Origin: Enterobacteria phage ATK47
DNA length: 64,000 bases
Strand: one strand, 5' to 3'
Sequence record: NC_055708.1
The position numbers and the translations under genes are program-made. The notes beneath the pieces are model-generated. The model did no database searches and had not been told where the DNA came from. It saw only the letters and a list, made by a program, of their open reading frames with translations. Position 1 is the stretch's first letter. The number at the start of each line of letters is the position of its first letter. Below, in pieces: positions 1,194-19,922 of the stretch.

Positions 1194-1204
1194 TTTTACA
1201 AAAC

Positions 1205-1244
1205 AGTTTACATAAGGATGATGGCGTGTTACTATCATCCTATC
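1205..1244 (+). promoter_or_regulatory. early promoter (GTTTAC -35, TACTAT -10) inside palindrome ggatgat/atcatcc
   Basis: -35/-10 spacing and flanking inverted repeat read directly. Confidence 0.5.
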
Positions 1245-1269
1245 AAATAAACGACCTCAAGGAAATAAA

Positions 1270-1557
1270 ATGAAAACCTATAAAGAATTTATATCACCTG
1301 ATGCTAACGTTTCTACTCTGACCGAAGCGACCCTTACTTCCGAAGTTATTAAAGCAAATAAAGGACGTGAGGGTAAACCAATGATTAGTCTGGTTGACGG
1401 CGAAGAAGTAAAAGGTACTGTTTACTTAGGGGATGGATGGTCTGCTAAGAAAGATGGCGCTACTATTGTTATCTCTCCGGCTGAAGAGACTGCACTGTTT
1501 AAAGCTAAGCATATTTCTGTAGCTCAGCTTAAAATTATTGCAAAAACCCTTCTGTAA
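1270..1557 (+). CDS. internal-protein-like (capsid-targeting N-terminus MKTYKEFI)
   Basis: N-terminus matches T4 internal protein capsid targeting sequence consensus MKTYQEFIAE; LxE sites for prohead protease. Confidence 0.6.
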   Translation: MKTYKEFISPDANVSTLTEATLTSEVIKANKGREGKPMISLVDGEEVKGTVYLGDGWSAKKDGATIVISPAEETALFKAKHISVAQLKIIAKTLL

Positions 1558-1560
1558 GTA

Positions 1561-1600
1561 GTTTACATGCTGATAGGATTATGGTATAGTAGTCCTATCA
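1561..1600 (+). promoter_or_regulatory. early promoter with -10 inside palindrome ataggatta/tagtcctat
   Basis: GTTTACA then TATAGT; inverted repeat flanks -10. Confidence 0.5.
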
Positions 1601-1620
1601 AAATTAATTAGGAAAATAAA

Positions 1621-1929
1621 ATGAAAACTTTCAAAGAATTTATCAATGAAGCGGCTGCACCAAAGACATTCGTTATTAATACTCAAGCGAGTCTTGATGA
1701 TGAGTACGCGGATGCAATTCTGAGGTCACTTGCTAAGAACGGCGTTGAAGTATCTGCATCAGACTTTAAGAAAGGGTCTTCCGAGATGTTTATTTCTATA
1801 GTTAAAGGATCTAAAGCTAAGATTAAATCATCATTCGGAGTTGCTCGTACCGATCAAATCGACAGTCATGACTTTAAACAAACCGGCGTTAAACGGCAGA
1901 ATACGATTGCATCACGCGGAATAAAATAG
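1621..1929 (+). CDS. internal-protein-like (MKTFKEFINE N-terminus)
   Basis: CTS-like N-terminus; SD AGGAAAA upstream. Confidence 0.6.
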   Translation: MKTFKEFINEAAAPKTFVINTQASLDDEYADAILRSLAKNGVEVSASDFKKGSSEMFISIVKGSKAKIKSSFGVARTDQIDSHDFKQTGVKRQNTIASRGIK

Positions 1930-1940
1930 TTTATAAAACC

Positions 1941-1980
1941 GTTTACTTTTAGATAGGGTAGTGATACTATTACCCTATCA
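1941..1980 (+). promoter_or_regulatory. early promoter with palindrome tagggta/taccctat
   Basis: GTTTAC -35, TACTAT -10, inverted repeat. Confidence 0.5.
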
Positions 1981-1998
1981 ACTACTGAGGAGAATAAA

Positions 1999-2184
1999 AT
2001 GAAACGCGCTGAACTGATTCGTAATGTTGCTGTAGTAATTGCTTCAATGGCTTTTAGTTTTTCGATGTTTGTAGGATTCATTTGTGGACTACTGACAACA
2101 ACTGAAAATTCTATCTCATTGGTAGTAGCATTTCTAATCGGTTTAATCGCTATTGTTATGGATAAAATTGCAAAAGGTGAGTAA
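1999..2184 (+). CDS. small hydrophobic membrane protein
   Basis: 61 aa ORF with SD GAGGAG; two hydrophobic segments. Confidence 0.45.
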   Translation: MKRAELIRNVAVVIASMAFSFSMFVGFICGLLTTTENSISLVVAFLIGLIAIVMDKIAKGE

Positions 2185-2185
2185 A

Positions 2186-2548
2186 ATGAAATATCACGTA
2201 TATGCGGATTTTGAAGCAAATCCTTCTAAAGACCCGGATTGTCGTTTATTCCGTAATCCGTTTGATTCAGCAGCTCAAGCATGGGCCTGGATTAAAACTT
2301 GTACTCCTTCTTACACTTTCTTTGAAGTGGTAGATGATAATGGTGTTTTGCATCCAGAACCTACAGAAACTATTAATTTCCTTCTGTTTGCTGGTTATGA
2401 CTGTTATCCTCTTGGTGGTATTGACGACCTTGTTGCTACAGGAAAAACTGTTGAAGCTCTTCGCGAAATTTATAAAAACGCAGAAGAAAATTTTGACTGG
2501 TATCATATTGTTGATGCTCATACCTTTGAAGTGGTGGAACATTCATGA
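2186..2548 (+). CDS. hypothetical protein
   Basis: ORF with SD GGTGAG before ATG at 2186; tight packing. Confidence 0.5.
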   Translation: MKYHVYADFEANPSKDPDCRLFRNPFDSAAQAWAWIKTCTPSYTFFEVVDDNGVLHPEPTETINFLLFAGYDCYPLGGIDDLVATGKTVEALREIYKNAEENFDWYHIVDAHTFEVVEHS

Positions 2549-2835
2549 TTCTTTATGCTAAGGTAAAATCCGTTGAGAATGGATATGAAAGCGATCAACG
2601 TGCAGCTAAAGCACTAGTCGATTACTATGGTATTTTGACCCACTTTGAAGTTGAAAAGGTTTACGTCGACCGTTCATCTTCACAGGTTAAATTACTTTGG
2701 GAAGACCGCAAATTTAATAGTGTGAACTTTGATTTCTTTATTGAAACAGAAAAAGGTCCTCTTGAATATGATATTTTCAAGAATCCTTTAAATCTTGAAT
2801 GTATTGAGTATAATTACATTAATATGGTACGGTGA
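2545..2835 (+). CDS. hypothetical protein
   Basis: 96 aa ORF, ATGA overlap with upstream gene. Confidence 0.5.
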   Translation: MILYAKVKSVENGYESDQRAAKALVDYYGILTHFEVEKVYVDRSSSQVKLLWEDRKFNSVNFDFFIETEKGPLEYDIFKNPLNLECIEYNYINMVR

Positions 2836-2839
2836 GTAA

Positions 2840-3355
2840 ATGAATATTTGTTTAGGCAGTACAATTCCTAAGGGTTATGTAATTGATGTCACTACCTATG
2901 AAAATGACGGGGACAACTATAAAACCAAAACATTGTTTGAAGTGGAAGAGCATGAGCTCCAACAGTTTAAATATCTCTTGAAGAAATTTAAGAGTCGTCA
3001 TTCCAGCACTAAAGCTGAACGTTACTGTGGTAATACACCATTCAGTGACTGCTCGCTTATTATCTACGAATATCTGGTTGAAGGGCTGTTCTCAGACCAA
3101 CTCCGACCAGAATTTATTAAAAAGGTCTTTGGCATCGAAGTAGACCTTGGTGATAAATCTGAAGAAGACGAAGCCCGCGTATTCGACCTGTTCTTTGTGA
3201 AAGGCGATGAGATATCTCAAGGACTTATTGATATTCTTGGCTATGCTTCTGAATACTATGATTACGATTTCTTGCGTGTAGTTGAACGTGTCGAATTTGC
3301 TTATATTGAAGAAGAAATTGTTTTGCCAACTGTTAAAATGATTGATTTGCTTTAA
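2840..3355 (+). CDS. hypothetical protein
   Basis: 171 aa ORF, SD GGTGAG upstream. Confidence 0.5.
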   Translation: MNICLGSTIPKGYVIDVTTYENDGDNYKTKTLFEVEEHELQQFKYLLKKFKSRHSSTKAERYCGNTPFSDCSLIIYEYLVEGLFSDQLRPEFIKKVFGIEVDLGDKSEEDEARVFDLFFVKGDEISQGLIDILGYASEYYDYDFLRVVERVEFAYIEEEIVLPTVKMIDLL

Positions 3356-3434
3356 GAATTATGTGTTATTATTAATTCATACCCTCTATTACCAAAGGTG
3401 CTCTAAAGTGCCTTTCATAATAGAAAGTTATTAA

Positions 3435-3509
3435 GGCCCTGTAGCTCAATGGGAGAGCTGTCAGCTCATAACTGATAGGTAGCTGGATCGAAACCAGCCA
3501 GGGTCACCA
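3435..3509 (+). tRNA. tRNA with CAU anticodon (Met or lysidine-modified Ile), includes encoded CCA
   Basis: Hand-folded cloverleaf: acceptor ggccctg/cagggtc, D stem gctc/gagc, anticodon stem gtcag/ctgat, loop CTCATAA, T stem gctgg/ccagc. Confidence 0.75.
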
Positions 3510-3512
3510 ATT

Positions 3513-3589
<77 letters not shown>

Positions 3590-3607
3590 ACTTCAAGTGA
3601 GGAAAAT

Positions 3608-3952
3608 ATGAAAGGTAATATTTATCTGGTAGTTCATGATTTAACGTTTTATTTTAACGAACAGGATACAGTTATTTCCGACCGGTTGATTAATTCATTA
3701 TATCAACACGCTGATTACGTTTATTTCCAAAATGAATTTGGCCATTGGAAGTTTCTTAAAAACCGTTCCGGGTTAACTAGTTTTGAATACTTTGACCGTA
3801 AAGACCTTTTAAACGAAATCCCATTGCAACATCGGTTCCAGAAACGCGAATCACTATACTATTGTCGCCATATACCAAATGCTGAATGTGTTTATGAAGC
3901 GATTAATCTATGGCGTCGGCGTCGAGAGCAAATTGATGATATGCCAAAATAA
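3608..3952 (+). CDS. hypothetical protein
   Basis: ORF with SD GAGGAAAA before ATG at 3608; upstream part of tracked ORF overlaps the tRNA. Confidence 0.45.
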   Translation: MKGNIYLVVHDLTFYFNEQDTVISDRLINSLYQHADYVYFQNEFGHWKFLKNRSGLTSFEYFDRKDLLNEIPLQHRFQKRESLYYCRHIPNAECVYEAINLWRRRREQIDDMPK

Positions 3953-4263
3953 GAAGCCGGGTCGCTACCGGCAAGTCGTCGGACTGATGTTCCCTGAGTA
4001 AGGACTGGTCTTAATAAATCTTTATGATTTGTTAATATCCCCTTACATCACAGCAGAAACGGCGCACAAAATTATCGATTCGAGGAAATATCTTTGCCGT
4101 AATCCGAGTAGCGTTTTTGACGGAACGTTCGGATATGGTCGAGATATGGCCTTTTAAAAATATTGAGTAGCGTCAACTGCTTAATAACCAGGTTCAAATC
4201 CCGGCGTTTCGTACAAACACTTGCCTTAGCAGGTGGAACCCCGACAAGGTTGCCGCAAGGCTT

Positions 4264-4290
4264 AGCCCCTTCCGAAAGGTTGGGGCTTTT
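4264..4290 (+). terminator. rho-independent terminator hairpin (gcccc..GAAA..ggggc + T-run), copy 1 of 3
   Basis: GC stem, tetraloop, U-run. Confidence 0.55.
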
Positions 4291-4335
4291 GGCATAATAA
4301 TAAATAGATAAGTTAATTAACTTAGGAAAAGCAAC

Positions 4336-4800
4336 ATGAAATCATACGCTGAATTTTTGACTGAACAATCTAGTTCAGATGTAAAAGCCGCTGCGATTGC
4401 AGCAATTCAAGCAGGTAAATATTCTTACAAAGACGCCTCTGATGAAGAACGTTTCCGTTTTATTAGAGATTTTAAAGCCGAAGGTTTTACTAATGCTAAT
4501 ACTGTTAGCCGAGTTTTTAAAAGCCTAGCTGCATCAGGTGAATTGTTCCAGAAAGCTACAGGTAAAGCACCTGCGCCAAAAACAGACCCTAAAGCAGCTC
4601 AAGAAAAAAATATCGCCAAAGGAATTATTTCTAAGTATGAAGCAATTCTTAAAGAGCTTTTAGTAATCAAAACAGAAGGCCAGAAACTGGCACGAGCACA
4701 TAGCTTCAAAGATAATCCTCACGCTCATAGCCTTGAGTATGTTGAAGATATCCAAAAACTTATTAAAGACCGTATCTGGTCTGCTAAACAAATTAAATAA
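4336..4800 (+). CDS. internal-protein-like (MKSYAEFLTE N-terminus)
   Basis: CTS-like N-terminus; SD AGGAAAAG. Confidence 0.55.
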   Translation: MKSYAEFLTEQSSSDVKAAAIAAIQAGKYSYKDASDEERFRFIRDFKAEGFTNANTVSRVFKSLAASGELFQKATGKAPAPKTDPKAAQEKNIAKGIISKYEAILKELLVIKTEGQKLARAHSFKDNPHAHSLEYVEDIQKLIKDRIWSAKQIK

Positions 4801-4806
4801 TAGAAT

Positions 4807-4834
4807 GCCCCTTCCTTATGGTTGGGGCCTTTTG
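4807..4834 (+). terminator. rho-independent terminator, copy 2 of conserved hairpin
   Basis: gcccc ttcc ttat gg tt ggggc followed by CTTTT. Confidence 0.55.
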
Positions 4835-4866
4835 GTATCTAGGGCATAAAAATATTTCATAAAGAT

Positions 4867-4906
4867 GTTTACTTCTTCCCTAGATGTGTTACTATAGATT
4901 TATCAA
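4867..4906 (+). promoter_or_regulatory. early promoter (GTTTAC, TACTAT)
   Basis: consensus elements upstream of 4924 gene. Confidence 0.5.
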
Positions 4907-4923
4907 CCACAGAGGAAAATATT

Positions 4924-5427
4924 ATGAGTCTTTACACTGAACTGAATAAAAAATCTGAAGAATCTGCTGAAACTATTTTTAAAAACGTGCAAAAGCGTAT
5001 TTTGGAAAAGATGTACGATGCAGCATCTAAAGGTGAAAAATCTTGCCGGTTTCCGATGAGGTGTTCTTCTGATTTATGCGCAAATACTATTGAATGGCTG
5101 GAAAGTGAAGGTCTTACGGTAGAGAAAAACCCGGCGACTTCTATTGACAGTGAATCATATATTAGTATTTCTTGGGATAAATCAAGGGTAGAAGAGAAAG
5201 ATGGTGATTGGGTTGTAGATGTTAAAACTTCTGATGGTGGACGTTCTGTTGAAGTTTCAGCTGTAGTTAAAGGTACCCACGGACAAAGGACTTGGGGTTG
5301 GGGTGGTGAAGAAAAAGAAATTGTTCTTAGTGTGATTGCAAGGTCTACTAGCAATAAAATTGCCCAGAGCATCATCTATGCTGCATGTATCGAAGCTGGA
5401 AAAATTTGCAAAATTAAAAATAAATGA
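4924..5427 (+). CDS. hypothetical protein
   Basis: 167 aa ORF with SD AGAGGAAAA; the antisense ORF 4932..5375 is treated as its shadow. Confidence 0.5.
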   Translation: MSLYTELNKKSEESAETIFKNVQKRILEKMYDAASKGEKSCRFPMRCSSDLCANTIEWLESEGLTVEKNPATSIDSESYISISWDKSRVEEKDGDWVVDVKTSDGGRSVEVSAVVKGTHGQRTWGWGGEEKEIVLSVIARSTSNKIAQSIIYAACIEAGKICKIKNK

Positions 5428-5485
5428 TGTACAAACACCATGGACGGTGTTACTATAGACCTATCAAATCAAGAGGAGAAACAAA

Positions 5486-5713
5486 ATGGCTAAAGTTAGT
5501 ATTGATGTCGTTGATTATGAATACACAGAAGAAGTTATTCGCAACCGTCACCCTGAAGTTCGTATCGATTCAGTACAAGATTCCAAGTTCTGGACAACTG
5601 AGCTTAATCTGAGTGGTCCTTATGAAGCTGTTAAGAAGTTCATGGTTGAAGAATACTGCGAAGGAATGCACCCGGAAGACGCCAAGTTTTATGTCAATTT
5701 GATTAAAAAATAA
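5486..5713 (+). CDS. hypothetical protein
   Basis: 75 aa ORF with SD AGAGGAG. Confidence 0.5.
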   Translation: MAKVSIDVVDYEYTEEVIRNRHPEVRIDSVQDSKFWTTELNLSGPYEAVKKFMVEEYCEGMHPEDAKFYVNLIKK

Positions 5714-5748
5714 TTTACAAACTCTTGAGAGCAGAGTATAATGCTCTC
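5714..5748 (+). promoter_or_regulatory. promoter cassette: TTTACAAACTCTTGAGAG..GAGTATAAT with -10 inside palindrome gagagca/tgctctc
   Basis: near-identical second copy at 36017-36052 with compensatory stem changes. Confidence 0.5.
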
Positions 5749-5783
5749 ATTGGATAATAAACCACCAATTGAAAGGTAATAAT

Positions 5784-6377
5784 ATGAACACACTGAAGAA
5801 ACTTGTTGAATTCATCCGCACTAAACTGGGTACTGCTATGGCTAAAAATCTGACTGTCGAAGAACAGTATAACGCAGCTGCAGATAAGTTGATTACCCAA
5901 ATCAAAGAACTAAAAACGGCTTCTGTTAAATCTATTAATGAAGAAAAACGTATTCGCGAACTTGTTAATGAAAAGAACAAGCAAGCCGCTTCTAAGGAAC
6001 GTGAAATTCGTAAGCTCCTGGCTGAAGGACAAGATGTTACCATGCATGCTAAGCTTGGTCTTCTGTATCGTCGAACTGCCGAACAACTTAATACAAAAGC
6101 TGACGGGTATGCCGCTATGCGAATTGAAATTGCTCGTAAGGTGGTTGAACTTGATGATGCTCGTCAGAACCTGGCAATCAAACTCGAATACATTCGTGAA
6201 ACTCGAGCAGCCAATGCCCTTGGTATCTCTACGGCTGATGATGTAATTGAAATCGCTGCACTGACTAAGGTTGATATCGAAGACACTCTGACTCGTGTTG
6301 AAACGTTCAATGGCACTCCAGCTGGTGTCGAAACCACTTCTGCTGATGTACAAGAATATATTAACTCTTTGAAATAA
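5784..6377 (+). CDS. coiled-coil protein of unknown function
   Basis: 197 aa, heptad-rich, SD AAAGGTAA. Confidence 0.5.
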
Positions 6378-6385
6378 AATAATAC

Positions 6386-6408
6386 GGAGGACTCCGGTCC
6401 TCCTTTTG
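6386..6408 (+). terminator. rho-independent terminator (ggaggac tccg gtcctcc TTTT)
   Basis: perfect 7 bp stem and T-run. Confidence 0.6.
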
Positions 6409-6426
6409 GATAATAAAGGAGTTAAC

Positions 6427-7029
6427 ATGCGAAACCAAAATAATGATATTGACTCAATGTTCGAAGAGTTCCGAGATAAGGTAAATCCACCTACGTCCTT
6501 AGTTGATTCATTACGATATGTTGCAACCGGACGTAAATGGTACTGGTCGTCTTCTTATGAGACCACCGAGAAAACGGCTAGCCATAGCAGAAAATCTTTA
6601 TTAGCCCCAGGTATTATGATTCATGATATCGGAGCTATTGCTAAACTAGTTGCAGACCATGATATTAGATTCACTGATTTCGTTGCTCCTACGTGGTCTG
6701 TTTGTTGTTTAAACACTGAATGGGAATATATCAGCGAACGCTCTGAAGATTATTATGGTTTTAGAGATAAGCTTCTGAGGTCTAATATGTTTTATATCGA
6801 TACAGAAGTTCTAGTCGATAATAAAAAATATTACTTTACGTTAATCATCGATTCTGAAACTATGTATGAAGGCAAGCCTTTGCTTAAAAGAGTTGATGCT
6901 TTAAGTGCTATTGATGCGCTTTATGAAACTATGGTTGTTAGTCCTAATTTCACTAACAATTTAATCCTTGAGCAATTTATTATGGAATGTAGAGAATATG
7001 TCAAAGCCAACCCTATACATGCCAAGTAA
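6427..7029 (+). CDS. hypothetical protein with FIMECR motif
   Basis: 200 aa ORF, SD AAAGGAG. Confidence 0.5.
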   Translation: MRNQNNDIDSMFEEFRDKVNPPTSLVDSLRYVATGRKWYWSSSYETTEKTASHSRKSLLAPGIMIHDIGAIAKLVADHDIRFTDFVAPTWSVCCLNTEWEYISERSEDYYGFRDKLLRSNMFYIDTEVLVDNKKYYFTLIIDSETMYEGKPLLKRVDALSAIDALYETMVVSPNFTNNLILEQFIMECREYVKANPIHAK

Positions 7030-7393
7030 GCCCTGGGCGTATGAATACAAGCGTAAATTAATCCCAAATGAAGTACTATTTGGCCCTATTTTAGCTTTAG
7101 CATTTTTAATCTTTATGATTATAGGAGCTGTTTTAGATTCTAGTGAAGTTATATCGTCTGATGCAGCATTTTCATTAATGTTCGTCGCACCACTTATTGT
7201 ACCGTTTTTATTAATGCCTATTAATTGGGCGGGATATTGGCACCAAGGCCGTCATCACAGAGCCCGATTAAGAGAATGGAAAGTTCAGTGCGCAAAAGCC
7301 CAAGCTCAGTATGATGAAGCTGTTAAAAAGTATGAATATGAAGAAGCTATGGAATTCGTTAAGGAAATAAGATGCAAAAGCCTCAACTCTTAA
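7019..7393 (+). CDS. membrane protein, variant C-terminal motif (EFVKEIRC)
   Basis: hydrophobic segments; start uncertain (6998 or 7019). Confidence 0.4.
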   Translation: MPSKPWAYEYKRKLIPNEVLFGPILALAFLIFMIIGAVLDSSEVISSDAAFSLMFVAPLIVPFLLMPINWAGYWHQGRHHRARLREWKVQCAKAQAQYDEAVKKYEYEEAMEFVKEIRCKSLNS

Positions 7394-7731
7394 CCGTATG
7401 GCCTTCTCTTGGTGAGAACATTCTAATTTTTATTATGAGTATTGGCATGGGATTTGCCTTTGGATTAGTTGGATTTCTTATTGACGGCGTTGTGTTAGGA
7501 TTTATAGGGAACACTGGTGGATTCACAGACCAATGGCAGGACTTACGGTATACCCAAGCCTTTGCATCCATCGCATCATTTTGTACTGTAGTCTATTTTT
7601 ACTACGATTTTATAAACCACAACAAGAAAAATAAAAAGGTTTACGCTTCTCAAATGATTAGTTATAATGAACTCCTAGCTAGACGTGAAAATGAAACAAT
7701 CGAAAACTTTATTAAGGAATGTAGAAAATGA
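7372..7731 (+). CDS. membrane protein, C-terminal NFIKECR motif family
   Basis: two TM segments; C-terminus IENFIKECRK. Confidence 0.45.
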   Translation: MQKPQLLTVWPSLGENILIFIMSIGMGFAFGLVGFLIDGVVLGFIGNTGGFTDQWQDLRYTQAFASIASFCTVVYFYYDFINHNKKNKKVYASQMISYNELLARRENETIENFIKECRK

Positions 7732-8033
7732 GTAAGATTATTGAAATTAAAGTACCAGAGTTTAATGATGCCAAATCCGCTTCAGATGCAATTTATAAAC
7801 TTCTGAATCAAGCTGAACGTATCGAAGAAGAAGCAACAAAGATCGCAGACCAATATGCCGTATCATTTTCTGTAGGTGATTATGGTAGTGGTCGTACTTA
7901 TTATCCTAAGGGTGAAATCGTATCCCAGTGGATGAAAGATGAAATTGAAAATAATGGCGGCGATGTTAAGCGTGAAGGTAATGGATACGTTATTACTGAA
8001 GGTGCTTGGGTTTCGTCTTCTGCGTTGTGCTAA
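7728..8033 (+). CDS. small protein, C-terminal GAWVSSSALC (paralog 1 of 3)
   Basis: tandem paralogs share C-terminal motif. Confidence 0.5.
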   Translation: MSKIIEIKVPEFNDAKSASDAIYKLLNQAERIEEEATKIADQYAVSFSVGDYGSGRTYYPKGEIVSQWMKDEIENNGGDVKREGNGYVITEGAWVSSSALC

Positions 8034-8042
8034 GGAATCATT

Positions 8043-8315
8043 ATGTCTAAAGAACAAACCGAACTGGCTGAAGCTGTAGCAAAAATCTATGCAGCTATTG
8101 AGGCTGCCAAAGAAATTGCTGATAAACAAAACACAACATTCGACTTGTATCCAGCTTATGGTATGGGTGGAACCTATCATTCACCAGGACATCTTAAAGC
8201 CGATCTTGAACGTTGTACAAAAAACGGTTATGCCGAATGGGCTGACGTTTACCAATACGACTACAACCTGAGCCTCGAAACTGGTGGTTGGGTCGCATCT
8301 TCTCACACTTGCTAA
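8043..8315 (+). CDS. small protein, C-terminal GGWVASSHTC (paralog 2 of 3)
   Basis: SD AAGGAA; shared motif. Confidence 0.5.
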   Translation: MSKEQTELAEAVAKIYAAIEAAKEIADKQNTTFDLYPAYGMGGTYHSPGHLKADLERCTKNGYAEWADVYQYDYNLSLETGGWVASSHTC

Positions 8316-8324
8316 GGAAACAAT

Positions 8325-8522
8325 ATGTCTCGTGAATTAGATTGTGCTGTACGTACGGCAGTAGCTGCTCTGGAAAACCTGTTCCAAATTGCAACAGAAG
8401 AACGCGAAGAAGTTACATTATGGATTGAAGATAACGCAGGTCTGAATCTCCAGGACGCGATCTCATTATCCCACAATAGTATCACTGTTCAAGGCTGGGT
8501 ATCATCTAGTTATTCTTGCTAA
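8325..8522 (+). CDS. small protein, C-terminal QGWVSSSYSC (paralog 3 of 3)
   Basis: SD AAGGAAA; shared motif. Confidence 0.5.
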   Translation: MSRELDCAVRTAVAALENLFQIATEEREEVTLWIEDNAGLNLQDAISLSHNSITVQGWVSSSYSC

Positions 8523-8526
8523 AACA

Positions 8527-8566
8527 GTTTACAACAAGATAGGGCTATGTTATAGTAGTCCTATCA
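8527..8566 (+). promoter_or_regulatory. early promoter with -10 inside palindrome
   Basis: GTTTACA, TATAGT, inverted repeat atagggcta/tagtcctat. Confidence 0.5.
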
Positions 8567-8584
8567 AAACAAATGGAGTCCACA

Positions 8585-8824
8585 ATGATTTATTACGAAA
8601 GTATCGGAACCAAAGTGGTTGGTAAAACCATTACTCGTGAAAAGTTTGCAAAGATATTCGATATGCGTTATAAAAAATCTGAACACAAAGGCATCCGATT
8701 CGAAGATGCGCACTGTACAATTTGCCCTTATAATGAAGACATAAACGGTACAATCGTTCCATTGGTAGAGGCTTCACATGATGACCTCTGGGATGAATAT
8801 AATATCGCATGTCGTGAAATTTAA
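8585..8824 (+). CDS. hypothetical protein
   Basis: SD GGAG 6 nt before ATG at 8585. Confidence 0.45.
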   Translation: MIYYESIGTKVVGKTITREKFAKIFDMRYKKSEHKGIRFEDAHCTICPYNEDINGTIVPLVEASHDDLWDEYNIACREI

Positions 8825-8852
8825 GTTAATGAATTAATCCGAGGAAAATATT

Positions 8853-9809
8853 ATGATGTTAGTTATTGGTTCTCGTGCACTTCACTATCACGGTCTTATT
8901 GATTCTAGCGCTATTAAAAATAGTGATTGGGACTTTATTGCGGACCAAGGTTCTTGGAATGTATTCAAAAATCAAATGATGGGTGTATATGTTCACCAAG
9001 ATAACCCTGATGTCCAAGTTTTCAAATGCTTCCATAACGGACGCGAAACTCATTTTGAAGCATACATCGTTCCGGCTATCACTAACGTTCGCGAACTAGT
9101 CGGTGAACTCACTCCTGAAGATTTCACGTCTTCTTATGACCTTTTAAAATACGCCAAGAAAAATTTGACTAAAGACCGTTTGAACGGGTTTTACTGGGCA
9201 ACTCCTGAGATATGTCTTGCAATTAAGATGTCTCATCGTTTCAAGAAAAATAATCCATTCTTTTTAAAGACTATGAACCATATTCAGTATCTTCGTGGTA
9301 AAGGTGTTACACTGAACGATGAACTTACTGAAATTATGCTGAAACGCCAGAAAGAAACCTTGAATTATGCTCACCCAGTTCTTGACACTTCTAAAAGTGC
9401 GTTCTTTAAAGATGACATCTATACATATGACCATGATACTATTCATGAAGCCATTGCACTAACAGACCGTCCAGCGTATACATTTTATATGAAAGATGGT
9501 TCTGAAGTCATGACCTCACGCGAGAAGTTCGAATCATTACCAGAAATGGTCAAATTGGCCGGCGTATACGAAGAATCATGTGTACTAGCGTTAGAACGTT
9601 CTCAGATTCCTAATAACTTTGAAATCCATCCACGTGATAGTTTTATGATGGCCCTTGAAAAGGTCTGCACATCAATCACATCAGGATGGTTCCGTGAGTT
9701 CGCTTGGGAAAATTATAGCAAAGTAGTAAGTATGTACCAAAGCTTAGGACACGACGATTACGTCAAGCGTTTCAAACAAAACTTTCATATGGTAAAACCT
9801 TTCAAATAA
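8853..9809 (+). CDS. hypothetical protein (318 aa)
   Basis: long ORF with SD GAGGAAAA. Confidence 0.55.
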   Translation: MMLVIGSRALHYHGLIDSSAIKNSDWDFIADQGSWNVFKNQMMGVYVHQDNPDVQVFKCFHNGRETHFEAYIVPAITNVRELVGELTPEDFTSSYDLLKYAKKNLTKDRLNGFYWATPEICLAIKMSHRFKKNNPFFLKTMNHIQYLRGKGVTLNDELTEIMLKRQKETLNYAHPVLDTSKSAFFKDDIYTYDHDTIHEAIALTDRPAYTFYMKDGSEVMTSREKFESLPEMVKLAGVYEESCVLALERSQIPNNFEIHPRDSFMMALEKVCTSITSGWFREFAWENYSKVVSMYQSLGHDDYVKRFKQNFHMVKPFK

Positions 9810-9821
9810 TTTCACAAAACA

Positions 9822-9860
9822 GTTTACAAGGTCTGTAGTTGTTGATACTATAGACCTATC
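9822..9860 (+). promoter_or_regulatory. early promoter with palindrome aggtct/agacct
   Basis: GTTTACA, TACTAT. Confidence 0.5.
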
Positions 9861-9889
9861 AAAACAAATGAGTGAATGGAGATATAAAA

Positions 9890-10090
9890 ATGACTACTTT
9901 GAATAAACGTTTCGGTAAAGCTAAACCTGGTTGTGCAGCAGAACGTCGTTATGTTTTCGCTCAGTTAGAAGATGTAGAGTATCAGATTAATCAAGTTCAC
10001 ATTACTGGTATCGAGCCTATGTGTGGCCTTGAAGCTCTTCGTGAAGTTCGTGATGGGTATCGTCGTGACATCGAAGAAATGTCAAAATAA
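9890..10090 (+). CDS. hypothetical protein
   Basis: 66 aa ORF from ATG at 9890. Confidence 0.45.
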   Translation: MTTLNKRFGKAKPGCAAERRYVFAQLEDVEYQINQVHITGIEPMCGLEALREVRDGYRRDIEEMSK

Positions 10091-10130
10091 GTGTACAAAC
10101 TGATAGGACTATGTTATAGTAGTCCTATTA
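10091..10130 (+). promoter_or_regulatory. early promoter with palindrome ataggacta/tagtcctat
   Basis: GTGTACA, TATAGT, 9 bp inverted repeat. Confidence 0.5.
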
Positions 10131-10148
10131 AAACATGAGGAGAATATT

Positions 10149-10454
10149 ATGAAATTAGGCGAAACCAACCGAATTGGTCTTTTAACAATATTTGTATCAC
10201 TTTTTTACGCAGCTCTTTCTGTTGCAGTATTACAAAAGGCTTACAGTATGGATGGTGTTCCTGGTTTTGTATTCTTATCGCCGTTTTTGCTATTCGTTGG
10301 AGCATTGTTATTATATGCCACGACTAGTTTCGACCATAACGTCTGGGTCAATTATAAATGTAAATTGTCTGAAGAAGAACACGCAGAAGCTCGTAAAAAA
10401 GCTATTGAATCTACCAATCTAGAAAATTTCATTAAAGAATGTCGAGGAAAATAA
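10149..10454 (+). CDS. membrane protein, C-terminal NFIKECR motif family
   Basis: two TM segments; C-terminus LENFIKECRGK. Confidence 0.5.
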   Translation: MKLGETNRIGLLTIFVSLFYAALSVAVLQKAYSMDGVPGFVFLSPFLLFVGALLLYATTSFDHNVWVNYKCKLSEEEHAEARKKAIESTNLENFIKECRGK

Positions 10455-10455
10455 T

Positions 10456-11142
10456 ATGAATAGTTCTAAAGTGTTTAATAGTCAAGCTCGTGCAGTAGGT
10501 GGTTTTGCTCATGCGATTAAAAATGACCAGATTAAAAACGAGCCTATGTTCTTTAATTGCGATTTGAATTTTGCTTTTGATAACGGCGGTCCAATTACTC
10601 GTAGCTTTATCCAAAATCTCCCTGACGATTGGAAAGACTCGGATGTAGTATTTGATTCACGAGTCCATATGCTGATGCCTGGTTGGTATCCTGCTATTCC
10701 TGGTTATCACCATGATGACGTACCACGCCCGGATATTCCGGTTGGTCAACATTTTATTACTGCAGGACAACCTGACTATGACAATCCTCGCTATTTGTCT
10801 GAACATATTCTTGGTCTTGTTAACGCTGATGTGTGTCCTACTCATTTTGCAACAGGAACTGCAGAGTTCAGTCAGATTCCTGATGGCGAACTTATCTATC
10901 GCCAGTGTCACAAAGAAGTCCTCGAAAAAATTGAAAAAGGTGAACTAGAGAAATGGGAAGCTCCAGATCGTACTCTTCTTCAGTTTGATTGGCAAACATG
11001 GCACACTGGTTCTCGTGCAATTAGTAATGGATGGCGTTGGTTCGGACGTGTATCTCGTAATACAGACCGAGTTAAAAAGATTACCAATGAAATTCGTGTC
11101 AATGCTCAAGTTTATCTGGAATTCCCTATGGAAGGCTGGTAA
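10456..11142 (+). CDS. hypothetical protein (228 aa)
   Basis: ORF with SD GAGGAAAA. Confidence 0.5.
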   Translation: MNSSKVFNSQARAVGGFAHAIKNDQIKNEPMFFNCDLNFAFDNGGPITRSFIQNLPDDWKDSDVVFDSRVHMLMPGWYPAIPGYHHDDVPRPDIPVGQHFITAGQPDYDNPRYLSEHILGLVNADVCPTHFATGTAEFSQIPDGELIYRQCHKEVLEKIEKGELEKWEAPDRTLLQFDWQTWHTGSRAISNGWRWFGRVSRNTDRVKKITNEIRVNAQVYLEFPMEGW

Positions 11143-11633
11143 TGATTAACAAAACATATTGGTCTAATATAGACGATGGCAACGAAGGTATTTCGTACTA
11201 TTCAGTGGATTGGACAGGATGTCCATCCTACTTAGTGAAACGTATTTGCCAAGAATTTAAAATCGACCAGCCAGCAGGTATTATCGTGAACAGATACATT
11301 AATGGATATCAACCTATCGATGAAGTAATACGAACAACTCAAGCTGAGCTTGAAAAGTTTTTCAATAAGTGCCAATGGATAACAGGATGGATTATATTTG
11401 TACCGTCGGTATGGTTTTTCAGTACTAAGGTGAGTTCTTTCGGATTTGTTGATATTATTGCTATCTTATTAGCATCTAGTATCGTAAGTGTTGTTGGTGG
11501 CATCATTGGCGGCGGTACCGCCGCCATCATTATTAATCTTATTAAAAGTAGTTTACAAGAACATAAAGACAAGATAAAAGCCAAGAATAATGAAGTTGAA
11601 CGTTTTATTACCGAATGCAGGAATTTGAGATGA
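11142..11633 (+). CDS. membrane protein, C-terminal RFITECR motif family
   Basis: hydrophobic C-terminal half; motif VERFITECRNLR. Confidence 0.5.
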   Translation: MINKTYWSNIDDGNEGISYYSVDWTGCPSYLVKRICQEFKIDQPAGIIVNRYINGYQPIDEVIRTTQAELEKFFNKCQWITGWIIFVPSVWFFSTKVSSFGFVDIIAILLASSIVSVVGGIIGGGTAAIIINLIKSSLQEHKDKIKAKNNEVERFITECRNLR

Positions 11634-11866
11634 GTATAGCAATTTACATTAAATCAGAATCATGTGATAGTTATCTGTACACATATGATAAAGATGTGTC
11701 AGAAGAAAAAATCAAAGACGACCTTAATACGGACCTTGATATGTTCTGTCCTATTGCAGATTACAAACTTGCGGTCTCTAATAGTGAAAGTCCATCTAAA
11801 GAAACGCGCATTGAAGAATTTATGTCTGAATTAATGGCCAAATCATGGGACCGAGATGATGAGTAA
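11630..11866 (+). CDS. hypothetical acidic protein
   Basis: ORF from ATG at 11630 overlapping upstream stop. Confidence 0.4.
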   Translation: MSIAIYIKSESCDSYLYTYDKDVSEEKIKDDLNTDLDMFCPIADYKLAVSNSESPSKETRIEEFMSELMAKSWDRDDE

Positions 11867-12314
11867 GAAAAATAAAGTGAAAGAGCTATCAGCCGGTATT
11901 ATTTTCCTTACCGAAGATAAAGAGTTATTCATGGGGCGTGTAACTGGTTCTCGTCCTAAAGGTGCATTAACTCATCGGTGGGATATTCCTAAAGGCCGTG
12001 TCGAACCTGGCGAATCTCCTATTGAAGCCGCTATTCGTGAATGCGAAGAAGAAACTGGGTTTACACAATATGACCCTGCCTTCCTGAAAGACCTAGGTGA
12101 ACATCATTACTCAGACAATAAGAATATTCATCTGTTCCTATATACCATCCCTGTAGAGCACGAGCAATTCAGAAACAGTGTTTGTAATTCCTATCATACA
12201 TTCCAAGACGGACGACAGATTCCTGAATTTGATGCATTCGCTTTAATTAAACCTTCTCAATGGGAATATGTAATGGGCAAATCGTTATATAAGGTGCTCA
12301 CTACCCTCCTATAA
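11856..12314 (+). CDS. nudE: Nudix hydrolase (NudE, e.1-like)
   Basis: Nudix box GRVEPGESPIEAAIRECEEETG; sits directly upstream of e as in T4. Confidence 0.75.
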   Translation: MMSKKNKVKELSAGIIFLTEDKELFMGRVTGSRPKGALTHRWDIPKGRVEPGESPIEAAIRECEEETGFTQYDPAFLKDLGEHHYSDNKNIHLFLYTIPVEHEQFRNSVCNSYHTFQDGRQIPEFDAFALIKPSQWEYVMGKSLYKVLTTLL

Positions 12315-12315
12315 G

Positions 12316-12347
12316 TAATAAATACCTCCTATAAACGTGGGAGGTAT
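12316..12347 (+). promoter_or_regulatory. late-promoter-like AATAAATA plus hairpin sequestering the lysozyme SD
   Basis: tacctcc/ggaggta stem occludes GGAGG; matches the known T4 e regulatory layout. Confidence 0.4.
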
Positions 12348-12348
12348 T

Positions 12349-12837
12349 ATGAATATATTTGAAATGCTTCGTAATGACGAAGGTCTTAGACTGACTTTAT
12401 ACAAAGACACTGAAGGCTTTTGGACGATTGGCATAGGCCATTTAGTAACAAAGAACCCGTCTTTAGCCGTAGCTAAAGCTGAACTTGACAGAATGATCGG
12501 CCGTAAATGCAACGGTACAATTACCCTTGATGAGGCTGAAAAGCTATTTAATGAAGACGTTGATAAAGCTGTCCGCGGAATCTTGGGTAATGCTAAACTT
12601 AAACCGGTATATGATTCTTTAGATGCAGTTCGTCGGTGTGCATTGGTCAATATGGTCTTCCAAATGGGTGTAGCAGGAGTCGCCGGTTTTACTAATTCTC
12701 TTCGTATGCTTAAACAGAAACGTTGGGATGAAGCGGCAGTAAATCTAGCTCAATCTAAATGGTATCGTCAGACACCTAATCGCGCGAAACGCGTAATCTC
12801 AACATTTAAAACAGGAACTTGGAAAGCGTATATATGA
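12349..12837 (+). CDS. e: endolysin (T4 lysozyme e)
   Basis: [48 protein letters not shown]; near-identical to remembered T4 lysozyme. Confidence 0.9.
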
Positions 12838-13115
12838 AAACATATAGTGAATTTTTATCAGAATCTATTCTTAACGAAGCTACTGACACATTTGCAACTA
12901 AGCTAGGTGCAGCTTTGGTTGAAGCTGAAAGTCTATTAGCACGTATTTCTGAACTTGCTAGTAAGATAGATACTCGCAAATTTGAACGTACCAGCGATAT
13001 CGCTAAGCTTGAAGCCTTGTTGCGTATGTGCGATAAACCAGAAGAAATCGCTAAGAACGGCTCGCTGATGAAACAACGTCTTGAAAAATATATTTCAGGC
13101 GCTTCAGAAAAATAG
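12834..13115 (+). CDS. internal-protein-like ([11 protein letters not shown]-terminus)
   Basis: CTS-like N-terminus; at T4 ipIII/ipII position. Confidence 0.55.
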
Positions 13116-13116
13116 T

Positions 13117-13168
13117 GTTTACTTCCTCCAAGGGTTTTGATACTATACATTCATCAACTACTTGGAGG
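13117..13168 (+). promoter_or_regulatory. early promoter with palindrome ttcctccaag/cttggaggaa
   Basis: GTTTAC, TACTAT; 10 bp inverted repeat whose 3' arm carries the SD. Confidence 0.5.
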
Positions 13169-13587
13169 AAATTATGACTCGTATCAATTTAACACTTGTT
13201 TCTGAACTGTCCGACCAACATCTTATGGCTGAGTATCGTGAATTACCACGCGTATTTGGTGCAGTCCGTAAACATGTTCAAAACGGTAAACGTGTAAAGG
13301 ATTTTAAAATCTCTCCAACATTTATCTTAGGCACAGGTCACGTAACATTCTTTTACGACAAACTCGAATTTTTACGTTTACGTCAAATCGAGCTAATCGC
13401 TGAATGTTTGAAACGTGGTTTCAAAATCAAGGACACGACAGTCCAGGATATTTCCGACATCCCTGCCGAATTTCGTAATAATTATGTCCCGTCCGAAGCG
13501 TCCATTGCGATAAGTCAAGCACGCTTAGATGAAAAAATTGCTCAACGTCCGACTTGGTACAAATACTATGGTAAATCAATTTACTAA
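13162..13587 (+). CDS. denV: endonuclease V, pyrimidine-dimer DNA glycosylase (DenV)
   Basis: [35 protein letters not shown]; near-identical to remembered T4 DenV. Confidence 0.9.
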
Positions 13588-13594
13588 GGAAAAA

Positions 13595-13924
13595 ATGAAA
13601 ACATATCAAGAGTTTATCACTGAAGTTACATTATCTGCGGAACAGAAAGCTGCTATCGAAGAAAGTAAAAATCCCAAAGTAACATATAAAGTAAATAGTA
13701 AAGGCGTTTTTGATGGCTTGGTTCAAGACCCTGAATTGAAAAAAGCTCTTTCTAAAACTAATGCGTACTTTGCTCCTAAATTTAACACAGCCGGTGTACT
13801 TATTGGATTGGATGTATTCAACTCTAAAGGTGTTCTATCTAATGCCTTTGGCTATGCCGCTAACAAAATTACCAAAGCCGCATGGGAATCCAATACCAAA
13901 CAAGCTCAAAAGCCTAGAGTATAA
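13595..13924 (+). CDS. internal-protein-like (MKTYQEFITE N-terminus)
   Basis: exact CTS-like start; SD AAGGAAAAA. Confidence 0.6.
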   Translation: MKTYQEFITEVTLSAEQKAAIEESKNPKVTYKVNSKGVFDGLVQDPELKKALSKTNAYFAPKFNTAGVLIGLDVFNSKGVLSNAFGYAANKITKAAWESNTKQAQKPRV

Positions 13925-14096
13925 TTCTTGTCTAATAAAGGGAAACGCAACCTCTCCTTATGAACGTCGAGTCCTCTGAGTGATGTACCTTTTCCAACCT
14001 GTAATAAGGTCGAGCGCAATGCGGTAATGGGTTTACATAGCGAGTCGAAGGACCTAACATGTGCCACGGAATGGCCCAAACCTTAAGAGAAATAAT

Positions 14097-19884: not shown

Positions 19885-19911
19885 GCCCCTTCCTTATGGT
19901 TGGGGCTTTTT
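19885..19911 (+). terminator. rho-independent terminator, copy 3 of conserved hairpin
   Basis: gcccc ttcc ttat gg tt ggggc + TTTTT. Confidence 0.55.
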
Positions 19912-19922
19912 GGCATTTAACA

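Follow-up and report, generated by a model that had tools for sequence, protein, structure and literature searches.

The DNA between positions 1270 and 13924 of the window (64 kb, record NC_055708.1) encodes five small proteins that start almost identically and then share nothing recognizable. This raises the question of whether they form one class of virion proteins and what they could do for the phage. The common N-terminus resembles the capsid-targeting sequence (CTS) of the internal proteins of phage T4. We consider it probable that all five genes, named here by their first positions g1270, g1621, g4336, g12834, and g13595, encode T4-type internal proteins of the genus Mosigvirus, which would be injected, are likely directed against host defences, and lie in exchangeable cassettes.

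The stretch 1200–14000 was 100% identical to Enterobacteria phage ATK48 (KT184310), a Mosigvirus of the RB69 group (Straboviridae, Tevenvirinae) with E. coli O26:H11 as the host. Many other Mosigvirus genomes were 96–99% identical to this stretch.

Shared leader and predicted processing sites

In a six-frame scan of the 64 kb, the pattern MK[TS][YF]xEF[ILV] matched five times, always on the plus strand and always at the start of an open reading frame (ORF), the ORFs having 93–154 codons. No match was found in 200 shuffled sequences, a relaxed pattern gave 0.04 matches per shuffle, and a still looser leader pattern gave no further match in the window. Each of the five ORFs was conserved at full length in 89–510 phage records and had a significant match to a PHROG family. 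A GGA-containing sequence resembling a ribosome-binding site (RBS) preceded four of the five starts, while g12834 overlaps the stop codon of e instead. The five motif sites are real and far beyond chance. An artefact of chance or composition, or ORFs that are not genes, might be suspected because the source GenBank record leaves two of the ORFs unannotated; this explanation is refuted by the shuffles, the conservation, the RBS-like sequences, and the PHROG matches, and its probability is negligible.

The mechanically predicted ORFs start further upstream for g12834 (TTG at 12819) and g13595 (ATG at 13529). The MKTY starts are favoured because the RBS AAGGAAAAA, containing GGA, is located before 13595, the g12834 start forms an ATGA overlap with the stop of e, and the upstream extension is not conserved in the homologue P0011.

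All five leaders read MK[TS][YF]xEF, with an aromatic residue at position 4 and Phe at position 7 after Met-Lys. For the CTS of T4 IPIII, the work of Mullaney & Black 1996, as relayed in PMC9026906, assigns targeting to residues 4 and 7 and processing to residues 8 and 10. An (I/L)-x-E site at residues 8–10 was present in four genes: INE in g1621, LTE in g4336, LSE in g12834, and ITE in g13595. The leader of g1270 reads MKTYKEFISP, with ISP at residues 8–10, and its sole [LIV]-x-E site is LTE at 17–19; the T4 IPI leader, MKTFKEFTSTTTPVSTITE|ATLTSE, has the same arrangement with ITE at 17–19. An earlier note on this DNA, made from its letters, had described the five starts as MK(T/S)(Y/F)xEF(I/L)(S/N/T)E followed by LxE protease sites. 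The ORFs, the starts, and the motif were found in all five genes apart from residues 9 and 10 of g1270, and sites of the (L/I)-x-E type were found in every leader. The note had also called the mature domains unrelated to each other, and this agrees with our comparison of the leaderless mature parts, which gave no pairwise BLASTP match better than E = 0.14 (tiny database). The mature domains are all small and basic (pI 8.1–9.7, K+R exceeding D+E), as in T4 IPII and IPIII; no cargo similarity to either of these beyond the leader was found.

The assignment of the five proteins to the internal-protein class is well supported by sequence comparison, because one is an orthologue of IPI, two belong to families named 'internal head protein', the leader determinants are present in all five, and gp21, gp22, gp67, and gp68 are encoded. 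The genes of the prohead protease gp21 and of the scaffolding core proteins gp22, gp67, and gp68 (the binding partner of the CTS) are annotated in the ATK48 record at 164.9–167.1 kb, beyond the 64-kb window. The genome of ATK48 likewise encodes inh and alt. Packaging, cleavage, and injection of the five proteins, and every function but that of IPI, are what we infer from this assignment.

Families of the five cargos

The gene g1270 (1270–1557, plus strand) encodes 95 aa with the leader MKTYKEFISPDANVSTLTE|A. Predicted cleavage after LTE19 would separate a 19-aa propeptide (1270–1326) from a 76-aa mature IPI* (1327–1554). The protein matched the Pfam family IPI_T4 (PF11634) with E = 1.4e-50 and 169.6 bits (gathering cut-off 25), its residues 20–95 corresponding to profile positions 1–76 of 76, and PF11634 gave no match for the other four leader proteins. 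The same residues were aligned with residues 1–76 of PDB entry 2JUB, mature IPI*, with 72/76 identical positions (E = 6e-42), and this alignment begins exactly at the known IPI cleavage site. By sequence, g1270 is the orthologue of T4 IPI. Its mature part is identical to that of RB69 IPI, for which protection of RB69 against restriction by GmrSD-type enzymes has been reported (Thomas 2018, PMC6024577), and this identity identifies g1270 as a presumably active copy of a known GmrSD inhibitor. In the same study, RB69 was sensitive to the UTI89 enzyme.

The gene g1621 (1621–1929, plus strand; 102 aa) has the leader MKTFKEFINE|A (1621–1650) and a 92-aa basic cargo. It belongs, on sequence criteria, to the named Ip7 family: it matched phrog_2667 with E = 3.8e-41 and aligned along its full length (100%) with 'internal head protein 7' of T2 and ip7 of CC31, at 92% identity. 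Identity to RB69p156 was 66%.

The gene g12834 (12834–13115, plus strand; 93 aa) encodes an internal head protein of the RB69p127 type. Its leader carries two sites, LSE at residues 8–10 and then LNE15 (SILNE|A). It matched phrog_3499 ('internal head protein') with E = 2.1e-46, and was 47–51% identical to Ip5 of T2, PP01, and wV7 and 47.6% identical to bas37_0261. At the sequence level, the protein is RB69p127 and a distant relative of Ip5. In the HIDEN-SEQ dataset, the Ip5-type bas37_0261 was 4-fold depleted on CFT073 (adjusted p reported as 0) and neutral on CFE299. A late-promoter variant, AATAAATA, was found upstream of the lysozyme gene e (12317–12324, plus strand); judging from its position, it is the probable source of late e and g12834 transcripts.

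The gene g4336 (4336–4800, plus strand; 154 aa) has the leader MKSYAEFLTE|Q (4336–4365) and a 144-aa basic cargo. Its family, phrog_2280, is a PHROG with function unassigned. Homologues were found in 510 phage records. Identity was 95–100% for some genomes of Mosigvirus and of the Dhakavirus type and about 73% for many of Tequatrovirus, and the gene was absent from T4. The cargo was 74–99% identical in the full-length homologues found. In all 40 of the 40 records sampled, the gene was called 'hypothetical protein', nothing was annotated at the locus, or the record had no annotation; it was never called an internal protein. Its profile found 12 representatives among 1.84 billion sequences. Within this family the leader survives cargo divergence (MLKFNEFLAE, MLEYSEFLKE, MKFKEFLIE, MISFNEFV...LITE), and the Tequatrovirus alleles carry a 5-residue insertion that adds a second L-x-E site, FLNE-xVL(N/T)E. 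In the AlphaFold model (predicted local distance difference test, pLDDT, of 74), a three-helix N-domain (residues 13–67, pLDDT 78–89) is followed by a Pro/Lys-rich linker and a C-terminal helical hairpin. This model matched its own family only in BFVD and generic helical hairpins only in PDB.

The gene g13595 (13595–13924, plus strand; 109 aa), with the leader MKTYQEFITE|V (13595–13624) and a 99-aa basic cargo, encodes a CTS protein of the RB69ORF123c type. Its family, phrog_3966, is also a PHROG with function unassigned. The gene was found in 89 records and was 95–100% identical in 75 of them; among the records listed, it was 'hypothetical' or unannotated except for two entries with other labels, and in none was it an internal protein. 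Together, g4336 and g13595 represent two families that appear not to have been recognized as internal proteins, both with complete leaders.

In RB69ORF123c itself (950–1279 of the RB69 sequence L004), the leader reads MKTYQEFIAA, with Ala in place of the cleavage Glu at residue 10; that of ATK48 reads MKTYQEFITE. If residue 10 acts as in T4 IPIII, RB69ORF123c would be packaged and stay uncleaved at this site. Our search for literature naming RB69 ORF123c, 127c, or 149c found nothing useful.

Deep homologue searches of the orphan cargos gave families of 9, 2, and 5 clusters and no non-phage or CTS-less relatives. Homology of any cargo of the window to the McrBC inhibitor Bas37_0260 was considered and rejected, no similarity beyond the leader being found. 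The annotation of KT184310 is sparse in the ip region: coding sequences are missing at 1621–1929, 4336–4800, and 4924–5427, the first two of which are kept in hundreds of phages.

Cassettes and their boundaries

The gene order in the region was the reverse of the T4 map: gene 1, 57A, 57B, the tRNA/rnaC region, e.8–e.2, nudE, e, denV, and vs.8. The classical ip loci are located beside 57B and between e and denV. Three genes (g1270, g1621, and g12834) lie inside these loci, g13595 is found just beyond denV, which separates it from the classical ipII/ipIII site, and g4336 is found downstream of rnaC at a distance of about 120 nt. The rnaC-proximal site is outside the 'two Ip loci' of Silas 2025.

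Four plus-strand elements in this region fit the promoter early stem-loop (PeSL) consensus published for T4/PST, TTTACW-N17-TAYWAT with an AGNA-loop-TCNT stem-loop (PMC4122927), and are putative promoters and terminators. The element before ipI (1207–1250) has an early sigma70-type promoter, TTTACA-N17-TACTAT, and the stem-loop AGGATGAT...ATCATCCT; the element between ipI and ip7 (1562–1605) has TTTACA-N17-TATAGT and a hairpin of -15.4 kcal/mol. The third element closes the ip7 cassette (1942–1985), and the fourth directly follows g12834, before denV (13118–13160). The PeSL family extends through the variable regions of the window on the plus strand, at 1207, 1562, 1942, 8528, 9823, 13118, 16090, 20373, 24537, 57990, and 59302. 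These elements consist of a TTTACW-N16-18-TAYWRT promoter and a stem-loop of -11 to -21 kcal/mol, mostly with ..TATCAA.. and an RBS. Matches to the promoter pattern were on the plus strand in 20 of 21 cases.

The genes are ordered 57B-ipI-ip7 in ATK48 (1270–1929) and 57B-ip7-ipI in RB69 (13950–14610 of L004). This inverted order, together with 92% identity to T2 and CC31 against 66% to RB69, indicates at the sequence level a cassette exchange of ip7 with phages outside the RB69 group (T2 is a Tequatrovirus and CC31 an Enterobacter phage). Next to denV, RB69 has two extra CTS genes, p124 and p125, which are missing from ATK48, and phage Bas37 has none between e and denV.

A different arrangement was found at g4336. 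A terminator-like hairpin, CCCCTTCCGAAAGGTTGGGGCTTTT (4266–4290, plus strand), lies about 55 nt downstream of rnaC and forms the left joint of a replaceable g4336 cassette. A second copy (4808–4833, plus strand) closes the cassette and is followed by a PeSL-like promoter at 4868; a third copy is located at 19886–19912. The three hairpins share the form GCCCCTTCC(GAAA/TTAT)GGTTGGGGC(C)TTTT. A late-promoter-like AATAAATA (4299–4306, plus strand), one mismatch from the T4 late promoter TATAAATA, lies 37 nt before the g4336 ATG, and in phages Bas37 and Mizar the exact canonical TATAAATA occupies the equivalent position before the cassette of this site. Bas37 has two copies of the hairpin, one on either side of its tandem CTS genes bas37_0244 and bas37_0243.

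Homology of ATK48 to Mizar and RB69 stops at 4290; it returns at 4861 for Mizar and at 4912 for RB69. The cassette between these breakpoints contains g4336, Mizar gp137 (MYTFNEFLAE...), or RB69p149 (MKTYAEFLTE...), and the adjacent DNA is 92–97% identical among the phages that exchange the three CTS cargos. The CTS-coding DNA was considered as the recombination joint and rejected, the left breakpoint at 4290 lying at the terminator hairpin, 46 nt before the ATG. We failed to find in the literature a description of this hairpin and late-promoter arrangement as a shuffling joint.

The second gene of the Bas37 pair, bas37_0243, encodes a 187-aa CTS protein (MKTYAEFLTE...) beside the g4336 homologue (9029–9592 of the Bas37 sequence L006, MZ501089) and is absent from ATK48. 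It was scored 'Essential' in the HIDEN-SEQ reference library, with 1/48 TA sites hit, and the authors are silent on it. The same gene, split by a frameshift, makes up ORF149c and ORF148c of RB69 (10929–11491 of L004).

Among the neighbouring genes, a 57B homologue (738–1193) is located directly upstream of ipI; in the Mizar record it is labelled an Acb1-like anti-CBASS protein, so that the ipI locus adjoins a second counter-defence gene. The genes e.6 (5784–6377) and e.5 (6421–7029) have the homologues bas37_0240 (88% identical) and bas37_0239 (45% identical). On uropathogenic CFT073, the latter two showed strong depletion in comparison with K-12 (log2 fold changes of -6.49 and -3.62, respectively) and on CFE299 they showed none, which suggests a host-specific role, possibly counter-defence, for the e.6 and e.5 homologues.

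Proposed function and comparison with known systems

Published work gives the internal proteins an anti-defence function. Ip1, Ip2, and Ip3 of T4 each inhibit a distinct GmrSD (Silas 2025, PMC12373910), IPIII is needed on ECOR17 (Srikant 2022), and the CTS protein Bas37_0260 inhibits McrBC (HIDEN-SEQ preprint 2025). Silas 2025 proposed GmrSD variants as the targets of all genes in the Ip loci. The idea of a conserved CTS that serves diverse cargos acting as injected anti-defence proteins goes back to 1994–2010 (Rao & Black 2010, which cites Repoila 1994); 'internal head proteins' of the Ip4–Ip10 type in T-even phages are credited to Repoila et al. 1994. The anti-defence reading of the five genes restates this idea of Rao & Black 2010 and Silas 2025 and is not new. 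New here are the two unrecognized families, the rnaC-proximal cassette site with a late promoter, and the cassette boundaries at repeated promoter or terminator elements. The earlier note had presented the cargos as candidate anti-defence effectors; this fits the targets of Ip1, Ip2, Ip3, and Bas37_0260, each a type IV inhibitor, and for four of the five proteins it holds by analogy.

In the mechanism we propose, the N-terminal CTS of the precursor, about 10–19 residues long, would bind the scaffolding core of the prohead, and gp21 would cleave the precursor behind the Glu of its (L/I)-x-E site. The mature domain, small and basic, would stay in the head with the DNA, and both would then be injected together. 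Processed g1270 (IPI*) would inhibit a GmrSD-type modification-dependent (type IV) restriction enzyme, and the other four proteins would most likely each neutralize a different 'first-response' host defence. Since the 5-hydroxycytosine of Mosigvirus DNA is mono- and di-arabinosylated and this DNA is cleaved by enzymes of the GmrSD family, BrxU for example, other type IV enzymes attacking arabosylated cytosine DNA would be the obvious and leading candidate targets. The genes would be carried in cassettes bounded by PeSL or terminator repeats and exchangeable one by one, which could explain why closely related phages have different gene sets. The targets themselves are not transferable by homology because the cargos have no detectable similarity to Ip2, Ip3, or Bas37_0260.

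Several results weigh against this reading. The four orphan cargos had no significant match in Pfam, NCBIfam, or PDB sequences and no recognizable domain or fold, and the structure model of g13595 was unusable (pLDDT 48). We found no virion proteomics in the literature covering these families in Mosigvirus or other T4-like phages. Tests of ip4–10, ip7 among them, on GmrSD variants in Silas 2025 gave no reproducible inhibition, and bas37_0244, the g4336 homologue, was non-essential in HIDEN-SEQ and had no fitness effect on the clinical hosts CFT073 and CFE299 relative to K-12. A canonical late promoter TATAAATA was not found within 200 nt upstream of any of the five genes; variants with one mismatch were present only upstream of g4336 and e, and g1270 and g1621 are preceded by strong early sigma70-type PeSL promoters, located directly upstream. 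Late expression of these two genes is therefore an assumption; transcripts reading through from the TATAAATA at 146 could, for example, provide it.

This promoter arrangement would suit genes, especially g1270 and g1621, that act mainly as early cytoplasmic proteins and whose CTS-like N-terminus is inherited and unused for packaging; IPIII made in the host cytoplasm without its CTS is still active (PMC9391042). We regard such a role as improbable. The leader is the most conserved part both across unrelated cargos and among distant members of one family, which is hard to explain if it is unused. T4 IPI is packaged and injected according to the literature, and its mature N-terminus coincides with the start of the g1270 alignment to IPI*. 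A restriction inhibitor made only after DNA entry would also come too late.

The basic pI of all mature domains, their lack of a recognizable domain, and the absence so far of a defence-related phenotype for ip7 and the g4336 homologue could also be understood if the four uncharacterized proteins were generic lysine-rich DNA fillers that balance the charge of the DNA and aid packaging or ejection but lack a specific target in the host, with a diversity arising from weak constraint and not from an arms race. T4 heads contain about 1000 internal-protein molecules, whose lysines contact DNA phosphates (PMC3012670). However, all three T4 internal proteins, long candidates for such fillers, proved to be specific GmrSD inhibitors. 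The conservation of the cargos within the g4336 and g13595 families and the confident three-helix N-domain of the g4336 model indicate folded, selected domains, and the acidic cargos of the RB69 CTS proteins p124 (pI 6.2) and p125 (pI 4.9) mean that basicity is no requirement of the class. We consider the filler explanation unlikely and favour injected internal proteins with a likely anti-defence role.

A more tentative proposal, which we hold to be possible and somewhat doubtful as a whole, concerns the site near rnaC. It may represent a third, unrecognized ip locus with at least three barely related or unrelated exchanging cargos (g4336; RB69p149/Bas37_0243; Mizar gp137), and the g4336 family, present in about 500 phages, together with g13595/RB69ORF123c may be injected inhibitors of defences to which an Ip has yet to be assigned. 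Essentiality is not expected of an 'internal protein', and the allele of this site that scores essential in Bas37 means that the role of some CTS proteins may go beyond counter-defence.

Internal proteins that are injected work ahead of phage gene expression and so decide the survival of phages with modified DNA under type IV restriction, which is relevant for host range and for the selection of phages for therapy. Targets are known for only four CTS proteins; the phage described here carries one known inhibitor alongside four orphan cargos. As probable internal proteins, the g4336 and g13595 families are candidates for screens against orphan GmrSD, BrxU, and McrBC variants, and their recognition fills a gap in the annotation of hundreds of genomes. 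The current understanding of the internal-protein mechanism is unchanged.

Compared with T4 Ip2 and Ip3 and with Bas37_0260, the proteins described here have the same leader, small size, the same or neighbouring loci, and a like proposed role as injected inhibitors of modification-dependent restriction, each specific for its target; their cargos, however, have no detectable similarity in sequence, and the likeness is one of the proposed mode of action only. With T4 IPI, g1270 shares the length of 95 aa, the place beside 57B, and a 19-residue propeptide ending in (I/L)TE, while its mature part differs from T4 IPI* at four residues. In the literature on the genus, the cytosine modifications of Mosigvirus DNA are described as arabinosyl and not, as in T4, glucosyl-hydroxymethyl. 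The g1270 allele may not block all GmrSD variants, given the UTI89 sensitivity of RB69. Like Ip7 of T2, to which it is 92% identical, g1621 lies in the ipI locus, and its allele resembles those of T2 and CC31 more than that of RB69, where ipI and ip7 stand in the reverse order. The gene g12834 shares with Ip5 the CTS, the length, and 47–51% identity but is found in the e–denV locus, whereas Ip5 is found in the ipI locus.

The flanks of ipI and ip7 and the element after g12834 share the promoter and stem-loop consensus of the PeSL shuffling cassettes (Arbiol 2010; Comeau 2014), and, as with those cassettes, the elements are found where related phages differ in gene order and alleles. The g4336 cassette departs from the PeSL pattern: its boundaries are copies of a terminator-like hairpin, after which a late promoter follows.

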